In this document: positions 24,203 through 31,338 of the stretch, piece by piece
Layout: every line of letters starts with the position of its first letter
Position numbering within the stretch: the stretch's first letter is position 1
Source of the DNA: a virus
Lineage: Duplodnaviria > Heunggongvirae > Uroviricota > Caudoviricetes
IMG/VR virus record: IMGVR_UViG_2896589216_000002
Direction: 5' to 3' (one strand)
DNA: 34,924 bases
Position numbers and translations under genes: made by a program
Notes under the pieces: generated by a model
Told to the model about the DNA's origin: nothing
The model's input: the letters and a program-made list of their open reading frames with translations, nothing else
Database searches by the model: none

Positions 24203-24277
<75 letters not shown>

Positions 24278-24280
24278 ATA

Positions 24281-24357
<77 letters not shown>

Positions 24358-24359
24358 CT

Positions 24360-24436
24360 GGCCCACCACCGAGGACTCGAACCTCGCACCGTCAACTTAG
24401 AAGGTTGATGCTCTATCCGGATGAGCTAGTGGTGGT
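24360..24436 (-). tRNA. tRNA-Arg (anticodon UCU), phage argN/argO-like
   Basis: Anticodon loop CTTCTAA, T-loop TTCGAGT, CCA; unusual C1:G72 acceptor pair. Confidence 0.8.
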
Positions 24437-24437
24437 T

Positions 24438-24514
24438 GGTGGCCCTTGCTGGACTTGAACCAGCGACCTGGCGATTATGAGTCGCTCGCTCTGACCAACT
24501 GAGCTAAAGGGCCG
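24438..24514 (-). tRNA. tRNA with CAU anticodon, ileX/ileZ-like (probable tRNA-Ile2; Met not excluded)
   Basis: GGCCCTT acceptor, anticodon loop CTCATAA, T-arm GCTGGTTCAAGTCCAGC resembling E. coli ileX. Confidence 0.7.
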
Positions 24515-27983: not shown

Positions 27984-28331
27984 TTACAACATAGTCAGGG
28001 ACGTAAGCAGTCTTTTAGGCTGCCGCCAGTCGATACCTTCAAGGAGCATCGCCAGCTGTGCCGGTGTGAGGAACACTTTGCCATCCCGGGCTGACGGCCA
28101 GGCGAAGCGGCCGCGCTCCAGCCGTTTGGTCAGCAGACACAGTCCATCGCCGGTAGACCAGAGGAGCTTTACCTGACTGCCATTACGCCCACGGAAGATA
28201 AAAACGTGACCTGACATCGGATCGTCTTTCAGCGTCGTCTGCACCTTTGCCGCCAGGCCGTTGAAGCCATTTCTCATATCGGTGATACCGGCAACCAGCC
28301 AAATTTTGGTCCCGGAAGGTAACGGGATCAT
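27984..28331 (-). CDS. tnpB: IS66 TnpB (copy 3)
   Basis: Identical. Confidence 0.85.
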   Translation of the reverse strand: MIPLPSGTKIWLVAGITDMRNGFNGLAAKVQTTLKDDPMSGHVFIFRGRNGSQVKLLWSTGDGLCLLTKRLERGRFAWPSARDGKVFLTPAQLAMLLEGIDWRQPKRLLTSLTML

Positions 28332-28729
28332 CGCTTCAGTTCCTGTATCAGCAGAGTCAGGAGCTTTTCGCTGACATTGCCATTAAAGCGGAGCGTCCCG
28401 TGCCGGAACGTTACCTCACAGCTGATACTGAGGGTTTCCGGATCCTCTGCGAGCGATTCTGGCTGTTCGGCAGCTGCATCGAGAGTCACAGGAAGTAGCT
28501 GGGGGCTCTCTGAAGAAGGTAATAGCAGCTTTCCCTCGCGCCATTGTTGTCGCCATTTGAACAACAGATTGGCGTTAATGCCATTTTCAAGAGCAAGTTT
28601 TGAGATGGATATCCCGGGTTCACAGGAGGCAGCAACGAGCTGCTGTTTAAATTCGGGAGGATAATTAGGGCAGCCTTTTCGCCTGCCGGGATTCACATTT
28701 TTCTGCATATCTGACACTTTGGTTCCCAC
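28328..28729 (-). CDS. tnpA: IS66 TnpA (copy 3)
   Basis: Identical. Confidence 0.85.
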   Translation of the reverse strand: MGTKVSDMQKNVNPGRRKGCPNYPPEFKQQLVAASCEPGISISKLALENGINANLLFKWRQQWREGKLLLPSSESPQLLPVTLDAAAEQPESLAEDPETLSISCEVTFRHGTLRFNGNVSEKLLTLLIQELKR

Positions 28730-28826
28730 TACTTATTTGGTGGACACCACTTTGTCTAATTCGTCAGATTCTGACCAGACGGTTCAGGCTGTACGCTTAC
28801 GTTTTTATAATCCGGCCATGACATTT

Positions 28827-29186
28827 TTACAACATTGTCAGTGCGTTAAGGCGGGATGTTTTTGGCTGACGCCAGTCCAGCTTATCGAGGAGCATTGCCA
28901 GTTGCGAGCGGGTAATGGATACCTTGCCGTCACGCACAGCAGGCCAGATAAACTGGCCTTCCTCCAGGCGTCTGGTGAACAGGCACAGACCATCAGCATC
29001 AGCCCACAGGATTTTAATCATGTCACCCCGTCGGCCACGGAAGATGAACAGGTGACCGGAGAAGGGATTATCATTCAGCACATGCTGTACCTGTTCACCC
29101 AGCCCGTTGAAAGACTTACGCATATCGGTTATCCCAGCAACGAGCCAGATGCGGGTGCCTGACGGGAGTGAGATCATCGTCCCCAC
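28827..29186 (-). CDS. tnpB: IS66-family TnpB (second element), 119 aa
   Basis: Clear paralogue of the 115-aa TnpB (...WLVAGITDMR...NGL...FIFRGRRG...). Confidence 0.8.
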   Translation of the reverse strand: MGTMISLPSGTRIWLVAGITDMRKSFNGLGEQVQHVLNDNPFSGHLFIFRGRRGDMIKILWADADGLCLFTRRLEEGQFIWPAVRDGKVSITRSQLAMLLDKLDWRQPKTSRLNALTML

Positions 29187-29593
29187 CCGGTCAGTTCACG
29201 GATCAACACTGTGAGCAGCTCTGGTGAAGGATTTTCCAGCGTCATGTTACCGTGACGGAACTCCACCTTGCAGGAGCTGGCACTAACTGTAGTCTGAGTA
29301 GATAAAGACGGAGTAAGAGCAGCCACCGGTTCTTTCGGCTCATCCGGCGTTATCTCCACAGGTAATAATTCAACGCCAGTGTCAGAAGAGGTTGTTACCG
29401 GAAGACGCCGCGATATGCGCCCTTCGTTCTGCCAGAGCCTGAGCCATTTGAACAGCAGGTTATCATTGATATCGTGTTCCCGGGCAATACGGGCAACAGA
29501 GGCTCCTGGTTGTGAAGCCAGTTTAACCATTTGAAGTTTAAACTCATTTGAAAATGATCTGCGGGGTTCTGCAGATAATGCTTTCTGTTCCAT
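29174..29593 (-). CDS. tnpA: IS66-family TnpA (second element), 139 aa
   Basis: HTH protein paralogous to tnpA. Confidence 0.75.
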   Translation of the reverse strand: MEQKALSAEPRRSFSNEFKLQMVKLASQPGASVARIAREHDINDNLLFKWLRLWQNEGRISRRLPVTTSSDTGVELLPVEITPDEPKEPVAALTPSLSTQTTVSASSCKVEFRHGNMTLENPSPELLTVLIRELTGWGR

Positions 29594-29679
29594 AACAGGT
29601 GTCCACTAGTTGAAAAGGTGGGCACCTACGTTACCAATACAGGCTTAATGGCTACATACGGCGGTCAGTTTACGCTTAC

Positions 29680-30017
29680 CAAAATACGCTGTTGCTTTTT
29701 TTAATATATATCGCTCAAGGCGAGCTTCATTTAACGCCTTACGCAGTTGCAGAATTTCAGATTCCAGTTCAGCCACCGTGCGGGAACCAGGAGTACCGAG
29801 CCCTTTTCTGGCGGCGGTAACCCATTGTCCTAAAGTGCCTTCAGGAAGGGATAATCGGGAAGCGCCTTCACTGATCGAAAGTTGATTTTCAAGAACCGTT
29901 CTGACAGCTTCGGCTTTGAACTCTTTAGAGTAACGTTGGTTTTTTCTGCTCATTATTAGCTCCTTCTGATGCCATTCTATTTCAGGAAGGAGTGTCCGTT
30001 AAACTCAGGCTACCTCA
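29680..30017 (-). mobile_element. IS600 fragment (IRL + most of orfA), truncated by the IS66-family remnant
   Basis: OrfA MSRKNQRYSKEFKAEAVRTVLENQLSISEGASRL...; end tgaggtagcctgagtttaacggacactcc (complement, 29989-30017); A7G slippery run. Confidence 0.85.
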
Positions 30018-30076
30018 GCCTGAGGGCAGGTGTAAAACAATAATCAAGCATGGGGTTCATATCCATAGCTCCATTT

Positions 30077-30622
30077 TTATTTTAAGGAAAGCAACTGCTC
30101 TACGGTCATGTTTTTAATTGCGCCCCGGTTTACAAGAGTCCAGCCCTGTTTTTCCAGATAAAACCGGAAAGTCTCCAGGGTACAGACCAGTGCGCCATCA
30201 GGAACGGTTTCGGTGAATTCGACATTGCCGAATTTGTCGAAGTGAACAACCAGAGTGCGACCATCACCCGGAATCATCTTGTCAGCAGGTGGGGTGTTAT
30301 TCTGGCGCAGTTCGGCCTCCATGCGGTCGAACTCAGCAATGTAGGCTTCCTTGAATGTGGCGGCTTTTTTGCCCGTGAAGCCCATCACCAGGAAAACGAA
30401 GCCGTTTTTGGTGATTTGGTAGGCGTTATAAGAATTGCCGCGGTGTTCGAATTTAACCCGCGAAAAGTTGCTGGTTAAAAATAGTTCAGAACATTCGAGG
30501 GATTCTATTTTTTGAACAACATGGTGATGCTGCTTGCCAAAAAACTCAGCAATCGAAATAGAAGTAGTGACGGCGCGACCATTTTCGATGGTTACGTCAG
30601 GGTGAGAAAGGGTAGTAGCCAT
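30077..30622 (-). CDS. Rha-family phage regulatory protein, ~182 aa from ATG at 30622
   Basis: N-terminal Rha motif (VTTSISIAEFFGKQHHHVVQKIESL); RBS gagga 8 nt upstream; longer 274-aa ORF in track is probably an over-extension. Confidence 0.65.
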   Translation of the reverse strand: MATTLSHPDVTIENGRAVTTSISIAEFFGKQHHHVVQKIESLECSELFLTSNFSRVKFEHRGNSYNAYQITKNGFVFLVMGFTGKKAATFKEAYIAEFDRMEAELRQNNTPPADKMIPGDGRTLVVHFDKFGNVEFTETVPDGALVCTLETFRFYLEKQGWTLVNRGAIKNMTVEQLLSLK

Positions 30623-30788
30623 AATGACATCCTCAAGTGATAAGTTAATTAACTCACCAGCAGAGGTGCTAATCTCATGGGTGGTGAGACGCACAGGGTT
30701 AGCACTACCGGTCACTCGAGAACCCGGCCAGCCTTGCGGCTGCCCCGCACGCCTCACCATAATTTGAATGTGGCTGTGCATTACGCAT

Positions 30789-30814
30789 AAAAAAAACCGC
30801 TTCAGCGCGGTTAT
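30789..30814 (-). terminator. strong rho-independent terminator
   Basis: Minus-strand hairpin aaccgcgctgaagcggtt followed by T8. Confidence 0.7.
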
Positions 30815-30866
30815 GCGCTCGAGTAACTTTCGGGGTGCTAATCCCGGCGCCCGTTTTATGAGGTGC
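30789..30866 (-). ncRNA. candidate ~80-nt small RNA or leader transcript bounded by the promoter and terminator above
   Basis: No start codon inside; predicted RNA gcaccucauaaaacgggcgccgggauuagcaccccgaaaguuacucgagcgcauaaccgcgcugaagcgguuuuuuuu. Confidence 0.4.
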
Positions 30867-30872
30867 AGGTGC

Positions 30873-30901
30873 ATTATAATTCCACCCGTTCTGGTTTTCA
30901 A
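30873..30901 (-). promoter_or_regulatory. near-consensus sigma70 promoter (TTGAAA - 17 nt - TATAAT) reading toward lower coordinates
   Basis: Minus-strand ttgaaaaccagaacgggtggaattataat. Confidence 0.55.
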
Positions 30902-30939
30902 TAGCTACATTCAACATTTTCTCTTTCCTTTCATCACCG

Positions 30940-31085
30940 AAGTGAATTTTGTGATGCGGTGCCTAGTGCCTCCAGGTGACGTTAACCAGTTAACAATTAC
31001 AGTCGGCTTTCCCACCCAAACCAATAAGGACTAACATGACTTTTAACTGTGCCGCGTGCGCTTAGCCGCATTCACCGCATCACAA
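30940..31085. repeat. 22-bp perfect inverted repeat (aagtgaattttgtgatgcggtg) flanking a 102-bp spacer with central gttaaccagttaac palindrome
   Basis: Arms at 30940-30961 and 31064-31085. Confidence 0.8.
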
Positions 31086-31086
31086 A

Positions 31087-31150
31087 ATTCACTTTAAAAA
31101 GGGCGGACATCAGCCAGCAATTAAACCGATGCCGCCAACTGGTACTTCAC
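31087..31150 (-). ncRNA. DicF-like small RNA candidate
   Basis: Downstream of ydfA in a dicA-led operon; hairpin GGCGGCATC...GATGTCCGCC + T5; resembles the DicF core as I recall it (GUUUGGCGGUAUCAG...CUGCCGCCCUUUUU). Confidence 0.45.
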
Positions 31151-31338
31151 ACAGCAATGTCGTTATTTACAACCGGAAGCGCACTCCCACCATTTAAATT
31201 TCACAGACAAGACCGACTCTTTATGAATACCGGAAATGCGCCTTCGTGTTGTGCCCGGTTTTATTTCACCACCTCCGGGCTTTGGTGGCCTCGGCTATAC
31301 CTCTACAGCGAGAATATTGAATTAATCCAATAAATGGA

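Follow-up and report, generated by a model that had tools for sequence, protein, structure and literature searches.

Positions 30,789 to 30,901 of the window (the whole 34,924-nt stretch of phage DNA analysed here) raise the question of what is made from a minus-strand promoter and an intrinsic terminator that enclose a segment of about 80 nt ahead of a Rha-family gene, and what the product does to that gene. A sequence-only reading had taken the unit for a small regulatory RNA or, alternatively, for a terminated leader that controls read-through into Rha, and did not recognise it as a named sRNA. Our main reading, with a probability of about 0.85, is that the unit is a copy of IsrK, the same element as the a1/b1 leader of a P1 immI-type C4 antisense cassette, and that it gates rha.

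Promoter, terminator, and the enclosed segment

The features of the unit are as follows.

30896..30901, minus strand: -35 hexamer TTGAAA of the isrK promoter (promoter scan)
30873..30878, minus strand: -10 hexamer TATAAT, after a 17-nt spacer (promoter scan)
30789..30866, minus strand: IsrK-family small RNA of about 78 nt, with predicted start G30866, 7 nt past the -10 (Rfam RF01394)
30847..30866, minus strand: IsrK hairpin 1, with A-rich loop AUAAAA (Rfam consensus structure)
30831..30846, minus strand: IsrK hairpin 2, with site a1 (core UUAGCAC, 30841-30835) in its loop (Rfam structure)
30818..30826, minus strand: site b1 (UUACUCGAG), in the single-stranded stretch between hairpin 2 and the terminator, with 9 contiguous pairs to the C4 b' loop
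30789..30812, minus strand: intrinsic terminator, stem AACCGC/GCGGUU, 6-nt loop GCUGAA, and U8 tail, matching the terminator hairpin of the isrK model

The scan returned the near-consensus sigma70 promoter that had been placed by eye at 30873-30901: TTGAAA-17-TATAAT at 30901..30873 on the minus strand agrees with the consensus at 11 of 12 positions, and is the best among 3 promoter-like sites in 3 kb (shuffled sequences give 3.1). Its position is conserved, a promoter-like -35/-10 pair lying at the equivalent upstream position in 13/13 homologous loci, with TTGNNN at the aligned -35 position in 12 of the 13 (the Klebsiella phage has TTTACA); in the nearest E. coli copy (L001) the -10 reads TATAGT. 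The -10 of the window ends 7 nt ahead of position 1 of the isrK model, and the transcription start predicted from it is 30866.

The terminator stem and loop occupy 30812..30795 and the T8 run 30796..30789, the first two T being the last two bases of the stem. The stem consists of four G-C and two A-U pairs, and the hairpin energy of -8.6 kcal/mol is moderate, so that it fits partial read-through; of the "strong" terminator claimed from the letters, the hairpin and the T8 are there and the strength is not. The other measurements made from the letters stand: about 60 nt separate the end of the -10 (30873) from the start of the stem (30812), and the 78-nt segment 30866..30789 holds zero ATG, GTG, or TTG codons.

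Identity of the small RNA

The Rfam isrK model (RF01394) matches 30866..30790 over all of its 77 positions (1-77) with 63.8 bits (E = 1.4e-11 in a search of the full window), the curated Rfam threshold being 50 bits, and the match ends inside the T-run of the terminator. The two 5' hairpins and the Rho-independent terminator of the family are all present and backed by covariation. Judged by its sequence, the promoter-terminator unit is therefore a copy of the already described prophage sRNA IsrK and is not new. The covariance-model search, which the sequence-only reading had itself suggested, has thus removed the novelty of the unit by matching it to a known element, and has confirmed the unit as such.

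In the Gifsy-1 prophage, the isrK promoter gives rise to a short terminated IsrK and to a read-through isrK-orf45-anrP mRNA that is untranslated (Hershko-Shalev et al. 2016; PMC4825925), a fraction of the transcripts passing through the isrK terminator (PMC4825925). Both halves of the earlier proposal, the small regulatory RNA and the terminated leader controlling read-through, fit this published behaviour of the family. The window shares with Gifsy-1 a full-length, above-threshold isrK, a downstream partner RNA, and target sites. Activation of the downstream anti-repressor in trans by the short form, and association with Hfq, are known from Salmonella alone (PMC4825925).

Hairpin 1 of IsrK shows compensatory changes in 6 of 7 pairs over 13 loci in a MAFFT alignment; hairpin 2 and the terminator are mostly invariant (86-92% paired). 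RNAfold applied to the window IsrK alone does not give the family consensus fold, because hairpin 1 carries one A-C mismatch in the window; the nearest E. coli copy has A-U there, and its IsrK folds to a consensus-like shape. The Rfam family c4-a1b1 (RF03163), which corresponds to the 5' part of IsrK and models the a1 and b1 targets of C4, reaches 14.1 bits at 30827-30879, below its threshold of 46.7. The sites that it models are nevertheless present, with 7 and 9 contiguous pairs to the C4 sites a' and b', respectively.

A C4-type antisense RNA and its predicted target sites

Downstream of the unit, and ahead of rha, lies a second RNA with its own target sites.

30677..30764, minus strand: C4-type antisense RNA of 88 nt, counterpart of Gifsy-1 STnc1160/"orf45" (Rfam RF01695)
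30723-30712, minus strand: C4 b' loop GUUCUCGAGUGA, in the second hairpin
30705-30699, minus strand: C4 a' site GUGCUAA, in an internal single strand
30666..30672, minus strand: site a2 (UUAGCAC), identical to a1 and 5 nt past the C4 3' end
30629..30640, minus strand: site b2 (UCACUUGAGGAU), covering the rha Shine-Dalgarno GAGGA (30634-30630)
30077..30622, minus strand: rha, the gene predicted to be controlled, encoding a 181-aa Rha-family phage regulator that is anti-repressor-like (Pfam, PHROG)

The C4 model (RF01695) matches with 78.6 bits against a threshold of 45, over model positions 1-87 of 87, and begins 25 nt downstream of the IsrK unit. The unit had been placed between the DicF-like RNA and the Rha gene; it has no direct border with rha, the 88-nt RNA at 30764..30677 sitting between the two. 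It was overlooked in the sequence-only reading, and the mechanism of IsrK cannot be understood without it. All 17 pairs of its closing stem are 100% paired, and 5/5 pairs of its hairpin 1 covary (MAFFT alignment).

Sites a1 and b1 of IsrK duplicate a2 and b2, and all four are complementary to two loops of C4, the complement of b1 and b2 inside the second hairpin loop (30723-30712) being CUCGAGUGA. Counting G-U pairs, b2 forms 12 contiguous pairs with the b' loop. In all 34.9 kb of the window, UUAGCAC...ACUYGAG is present at exactly three places, namely at a1b1, at a2b2, and, as its complement, at a'b'; 0.01 occurrences are expected by chance. The ATG of rha at 30622 stands 7 nt after the Shine-Dalgarno sequence, and the gene starts directly after b2 with no icd-like ORF between them. 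The Rha protein matches Pfam Phage_pRha (92.3 bits, residues 19-102) and PHROG families of Rha-like regulators and of anti-repressors.

Covariation between IsrK, C4, and the rha leader

We fetched 12 loci, one from an E. coli chromosome and the others from lambdoid phages (Stx2-converting ones among them), from a P2-like phage, and from phages that infect Salmonella, Hafnia, Klebsiella, Yersinia, and Vibrio. To compare it directly, we also retrieved Gifsy-1 by accession. The six pairing sites were aligned over 13 loci including P1; the C4 b' hairpin was located through its conserved GCCGG...CCGGU stem, and b2 was taken as the longest contiguous helix. A plain MAFFT alignment keeps a1 and most C4 stems in register and does not keep b1, b2, or a2 so, and it was used only for the internal hairpins.

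In the six-site alignment, which is anchored on complementarity and hence leans towards the structure, 97.6% of the cells in a1-a' plus b1-b' are paired, against 61.6% in shuffles and at most 49.5% in slid registers, and 14 of the 16 pairs show compensatory changes (score 1.02 vs. 0.25; none of 500 shuffles scores as high). Complementarity between the a1 core and a' is perfect, 7/7 positions being paired in 13/13 loci with double changes at 6 of the 7, and 8 of 9 pairs covary in b1-b'. The downstream sites behave alike over the same 13 loci: a'-a2 is 100% paired with double changes in 6/7 pairs, 9/9 pairs covary in b'-b2, and together the two helices are 99.0% paired with 15 of 16 pairs compensatory (score 1.06 vs. 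0.24). Nine different a' cores (10 with Gifsy-1) and 13 different b' loops occur among the 13 loci, and the sites change together. JLK-2012 has the a site of the window but another b site. The comparative check for compensatory changes that had been proposed from the sequence thus gives strong covariation over 13 loci in the a/b sites, and covariation in the internal hairpins.

Two observations are independent of the alignment or of the pairing. Duplexes between C4 and IsrK, computed alignment-free, average -32.8 kcal/mol for cognate and -23.1 kcal/mol for non-cognate partners, the cognate partner ranking first in 12 of 14 rows; and in 11 of the 13 loci the distance from the a1 core to the start of b1 is exactly 8 nt. 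For the window itself, the C4 loops pair with IsrK at -35.1 kcal/mol (z = -3.1 vs. shuffled controls) and with the rha leader at -34.5 kcal/mol (z = -4.0 vs. shuffled controls). In the minimum free energy fold of the whole read-through RNA, the middle of IsrK pairs with the 3' half of C4.

Distribution and locus context

By megablast, the 121-nt unit is matched in 405 of 5,426 complete E. coli genomes, and looser relatives were found in 139 phage records. Multi-lysogens such as O157:H7 carry up to 9 related places in one genome. In 12/12 fetched loci, isrK scores above threshold and is followed by C4 20-58 nt on; the same tandem is present in Gifsy-1, and in P1 too, but with isrK below threshold. 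RF03163 overlaps isrK in most fetched loci, mostly under its own threshold, and does so above or near threshold in JLK-2012, Hafnia phage yong2, P1, and Gifsy-1. The gene that follows the cassette changes from locus to locus: it encodes Rha in the window and in four lambdoid phages, an ORF6N protein in Gifsy-1, JLK-2012, and phi349, a Bro-N protein in the phages of Klebsiella and Vibrio, and a protein of the "Derepression" family in the P2-like phage; in P1 the cassette is followed by icd/ant. A scan of genome contigs for the Gifsy-type 16-mer CGGGATTGGCGTCCCG gave, among the matches listed, mostly chance matches in GC-rich genomes, and was excluded.

The cassette is located in the early-left region of a Rac-like prophage. 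Upstream of the unit lie a DUF1391/YdaF gene, a CI-like repressor gene, and divergent Cro-like and YdaT-like genes, together with a long hairpin. The "DicF-like RNA" that had been placed upstream (31101..31151) scores 28.6 bits, below the Rfam threshold of 48. Synteny with the closest E. coli copy extends 59 nt past the rha stop and is then interrupted by insertion-sequence genes. Since synteny is broken by insertion sequences, the prophage is degraded; the cassette may be a relic, and may have kept or lost its importance for the host.

Alternative explanations

Three other accounts of the segment were weighed. If the unit acted in cis only, a1/b1 and the terminator would tune transcription into C4 and rha, for instance if C4 bound to the nascent leader in the manner of P4, and the terminated product would be inert. 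The annotation of P1 lends itself to this, a1/b1 being listed merely as "putative" C4 targets in an operon leader; the authors of the Gifsy-1 study themselves raised a termination model of the P4 CI kind, and the cis mutations G28A and G31A gave higher basal expression there (PMC4825925). But Gifsy-1 IsrK supplied in trans from a plasmid increased anrP translation 139-fold and transcription 8-fold, which mutant IsrK did not, and the short RNA is stable and detectable in Salmonella (PMC4825925). In addition, hairpin 1 and its A-rich loop lie outside the a/b pairing yet are conserved and covary, which suggests a function as a free RNA, and we regard purely cis action as improbable. Still less can be said for a main role as an Hfq-dependent trans-acting sRNA on host core-genome mRNAs, like DicF and other prophage sRNAs. 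The Rfam family name ("Hfq binding RNA"), the A-rich loop of hairpin 1, and the U-tailed terminator all suit such a role, but the variable single strands covary with the adjacent C4 and with the ribosome-binding site of the adjacent gene rather than with a fixed host target, and with 9 a' cores (10 if Gifsy-1 is counted) and b' loops that differ at each of 13 loci there is no conserved seed. As the main role it is very improbable; as a secondary function of IsrK, host targeting is possible.

The segment might also code for protein, either as an N-terminal extension of Rha, as RefSeq/PGAP has it in E. coli, or as the 70-aa ORF (30705-30917) that covers both promoter and terminator. PGAP places a "Rha family phage regulatory protein" over the segment in every E. 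coli match listed, the Rha frame is open from 30901, and PHROG 995 has about 104 additional N-terminal profile positions. Set against this are the two full-length Rfam RNA matches over the region, whose stems carry compensatory changes; a 99.6% identical E. coli copy that has T7 in place of T8 in the terminator, shifting the upstream frame; a short protein that has a good Shine-Dalgarno sequence and whose Pfam Rha domain begins at residue 19; an upstream ORF whose length varies among loci; and the oddity of a CDS that would hold its own promoter and terminator. We find a coding role scarcely credible, in agreement with the earlier judgement that the 70-aa ORF is unlikely to be coding, which the T7/T8 frame change and the RNA-type covariation now bear out. 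The 274-aa ORF from TTG 30901, the 70-aa ORF, and the PGAP-extended Rha were all rejected as coding on the frame shift, the RNA covariation, and the start of the Rha domain. RefSeq and PHROG annotations routinely hide both RNAs under an over-long "Rha" CDS.

Proposed mechanism

With the unit read as IsrK in a C4 cassette, the switch may be pictured as follows. By analogy with the known members, transcription would start at about 30866 from the sigma-70 promoter at 30901-30873; most transcripts would end at the moderate terminator (30812-30789), giving the IsrK of about 78 nt, and some would read through into the 88-nt C4-type RNA (30764-30677) and the rha mRNA. C4 is probably excised, as in P1 and Salmonella. 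Its a' and b' sites would then pair with a2 and b2, the b2 helix masking the rha Shine-Dalgarno sequence, and Rha would not be translated. Sites a1 and b1 mimic a2 and b2 near-exactly and may pair with C4 as well; in cis this would lock the read-through transcript in an inactive state. Free short IsrK, by analogy with its trans activation in Gifsy-1, would compete for C4 or remodel the fold, and the anti-repressor-like Rha would be translated.

The strong covariation of a'-a2 and b'-b2 speaks for a direct action of C4 on the ribosome-binding site, like that in P1, and if this holds, IsrK may largely be a decoy for C4. For the window the outcome is an annotation correction, in which a known pair of IsrK and a C4-type RNA would gate an anti-repressor-like gene and potentially prophage induction.

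Comparison with known systems

The closest published system is Gifsy-1. The window resembles it in having a predicted promoter for the RNA itself, a three-hairpin RNA, an intrinsic terminator that is probably leaky, and a C4-type RNA about 25 nt downstream, and in the layout of a1/b1, a'/b', and a2/b2, with b2 over the Shine-Dalgarno sequence of an anti-repressor-type gene. The two differ in that only 54 of 81 IsrK positions are identical, the a and b specificities are not the same, and the gene under putative control in the window is of the Rha family where Gifsy-1 controls the ORF6N-family AnrP. Orthology of Rha and AnrP was rejected (E = 0.054). The cassette of the window also lies in the early-left region of a Rac-like prophage and not downstream of antQ: no antQ was found upstream of it, and Rfam found no isrJ in the window. 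Since Rha is not homologous to AnrP and antQ is not upstream, the downstream consequences described in Salmonella are not transferable. Nor does orthology hold for the whole isrK locus, as upstream genes, uORF, and downstream gene all differ.

The uORF deserves separate mention. The first AUG of Gifsy-1 orf45 (A107) is the AUG at C4 position 5. The reading frame from this AUG is not conserved: six loci have 8, 14, 14, 15, 31, or 36 aa, and in others the frame is fused to the downstream gene. The published Gifsy-1 model needs translation of orf45 to be coupled into anrP (PMC4825925). Gifsy-1 orf45 ends at an overlapping stop, whereas in the window the frame from AUG 30760 runs into rha in frame without a stop and would give an extended Rha of 227 aa, so the termination-reinitiation coupling of Gifsy-1 cannot work here as described.

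When Gifsy-1 is itself scored by Rfam, isrK reaches 79.3 bits, C4, whose match coincides exactly with "orf45", 69.0 bits, and c4-a1b1 48.1 bits, and the anrP Shine-Dalgarno sequence lies inside a b2 site. In the published work, a helix between IsrK G28/G31 and orf45 C162/C159 keeps the mRNA inactive and is defined by the mutations G28A/G31A with their partners C162U/C159U (PMC4825925). These residues fall in the cores of the present sites, G28 and G31 in the a1 core UUGGCGU and C159 and C162 in the a' core ACGCCAA. Mutants of a' (C159U and C162U) were still at least 50-fold derepressed with a1 compensated (Table 1 of PMC4825925), as is expected if a' must also pair with an unmutated a2. The decoy reading thus fits published data that the original Gifsy-1 model explains only partly. 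STnc1160, a stable processed RNA from the orf45 region, was likened by the same authors to the CI RNA of phage P4; P1, C4, immI, and RNase P are not mentioned in their text (PMC4825925).

The P1 immI cassette shows the same element order and pairing logic as the window. Its curated record gives promoter P51b, a1, b1, c4, a2, b2, icd, and ant, in this order, with a2/b2 annotated as translational repression sites ("repression of icd ant translation") and a1/b1 only as "putative" C4 targets. In P1, C4 is excised from the operon transcript by RNase P, and translational repression has a polar effect on ant. In both cassettes C4 is above threshold, the covariation pattern is the same, and a2/b2 follow c4, b2 overlapping the ribosome-binding site of the gene concerned. 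They differ in that icd-ant is controlled through a small coupled ORF, whereas rha follows directly, and in that P1 has an extra C1-controlled promoter. The two leaders also fall on opposite sides of the Rfam thresholds: that of P1 scores 51.0 bits with c4-a1b1, reaching the threshold, and 35.1 bits with isrK in an end-to-end alignment, below the isrK threshold, whereas that of the window is under the c4-a1b1 threshold. The alignment of the P1 leader with isrK includes a terminator-like hairpin and a U run. On these grounds the P1 a1/b1 leader, IsrK, and the Rfam c4-a1b1 motif belong to one kind of element. The immI operon of phages P1 and P7 goes back to Citron and Schuster (1990), as cited in PMC7313666.

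A wider proposal follows from these comparisons, which we put forward tentatively and rate somewhat short of an even chance: IsrK and the P1 a1/b1 leader would be one element, Gifsy-1 "orf45" would be a C4 antisense RNA, and the published switch would be a three-site RNA circuit in which C4 represses at a2/b2, short IsrK serves mainly as an anti-antisense decoy, and the hypervariable a/b sites form orthogonal specificity classes. At least 10 a types including Gifsy-1, and more than 13 b types, occur. If the proposal is true, the a/b specificity classes would decide which co-resident prophages cross-induce one another. No paper stating the unification of IsrK, P1 a1b1, and C4 was found in the literature searched. 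The sRNA family is already curated and the mechanism already published, and the result as a whole is a modest conceptual tidy-up with no new kind of element; what may be mildly new is the explicit IsrK-C4 a1/b1 unification and the decoy reading, which we offer as a hypothesis on the family and not on the window.

Similar logic is found further afield. In P4 immunity (CI RNA; seqA, seqB, and seqC) a processed small RNA also pairs with repeated sites on either side of it in its own transcript, and P4 CI has been cited as a structural homologue of IsrK/STnc1160 by the Gifsy-1 authors; as far as PMC4825925 describes it, the outcome there is premature termination of the replication operon and not masking of a ribosome-binding site. 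AgvB, the "anti-sRNA" sponge of E. coli O157, likewise mimics an mRNA target site and titrates a regulatory RNA, but titrates the host sRNA GcvB, whereas IsrK mimics the target of the antisense RNA of its own cassette, and the sequences are unrelated (PMC12197685). The two Rfam families have been recorded side by side before: a paper on APSE phages found both in every APSE genome and handled them separately, and an Rfam-based annotation of 2014 lists isrK (twice) and C4 in E. coli O157:H7 EDL933. The present comparison joins three usually separate literatures, on Salmonella IsrK, on P1 C4, and on the Rfam c4-a1b1 motif, around one portable RNA cassette. In phages of six hosts, enterobacterial and Vibrio, it accompanies anti-repressor or derepression genes of at least five families unrelated to one another.

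The isrK and c4-a1b1 families

Of the 14 loci examined besides the window (L001-L013 and L134), 10 had same-strand overlaps between a match to isrK (RF01394) and a match to c4-a1b1 (RF03163, the model of the a1/b1 targets of C4 antisense RNA). In all overlapping cases, c4-a1b1 started 13 nt 5′ of the isrK match, within the −10 region of the promoter. The two families seem to describe a single element, and the membership list of the C4 clan (CL00128) does not include isrK.

Three differences in the isrK unit separate the window from L001, the nearest E. coli copy. The −10 hexamer (30873-30878) is TATAAT in the window vs. TATAGT in L001, the window version being the better; U in L001 is replaced by C at 30849, which turns an A-U pair of IsrK hairpin 1 into an A-C mismatch; and the terminator tail (30789-30796) is T8 in the window but T7 in L001.

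Over-long Rha annotation

In all E. coli matches listed, the RefSeq/PGAP CDS for "Rha family phage regulatory protein" covers IsrK together with its promoter and terminator, as well as the C4 RNA. A Rha CDS running across both RNAs is over-long. The region beneath it is:

30623-30917, minus strand: region under the over-long Rha CDS (in L001, 4372-5211)

The window Rha aligns to PHROG 995 (307 profile positions) from position 105 onward only; many members of this PHROG therefore seem to be extended at the N terminus by the same spurious stretch, of ∼104 aa, as in the PGAP annotation.

Flanking elements and prophage integrity

Upstream of the isrK promoter lie:

30940-30961 and 31073-31094: arms of a perfect 22-bp inverted repeat, enclosing 111 nt
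31101-31151, minus strand: DicF-like element
31133-31106, minus strand: terminator-like hairpin in that element

The inverted repeat, which separates the isrK promoter from the DicF-like element, coincides with a subthreshold Rfam match to STnc100 (30.7 bits vs. 47) and could be a further structured prophage RNA. What the sequence-only reading had named a DicF-like RNA scored 28.6 bits, below the 48 bits required for DicF, and is at best a divergent relative.

The prophage regulatory region is flanked by insertion-sequence genes (28328-30018 and 33021-34216):

28328-29593: IS66-family TnpA- and TnpB-like ORFs
29645-29953: IS3-family orfA
33021-34216: IS3-family orfA/orfB pair

The intact E. 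coli prophage has a ydaE-like gene after rha; in the window, homology to that prophage ends at 30018, 59 nt past the rha stop codon, so this gene is severed.

Clusters of tRNA genes are common in late regions of lambdoid prophages, and the window has one:

24206-24513, minus strand: four-tRNA gene cluster (Rfam tRNA, 56-70 bits each)

In neighbouring DNA of the comparison phages, Yersinia phage vB_YpM_44 gave a full-length ryfA match (L009 149-447, 134.6 bits) and phage phi349 an ALIL pseudoknot match (L010 337-453, 121.5 bits); both are unrelated to the IsrK finding.

An AUG within C4 in frame with rha

Position 5 of C4 begins an AUG:

30760, minus strand: C4 AUG, frame open to 30077 with no stop before rha

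The C4 AUG is likewise in frame with the downstream gene, and stop-free, in five further Rha-type loci, and its distance to the downstream start is divisible by three in 10 of 14 loci, a count of uncertain significance given that the loci are not independent. The AUG at 30760 is the counterpart of the first AUG in "orf45" of the Salmonella prophage Gifsy-1; in the window, it is fused in frame to rha.
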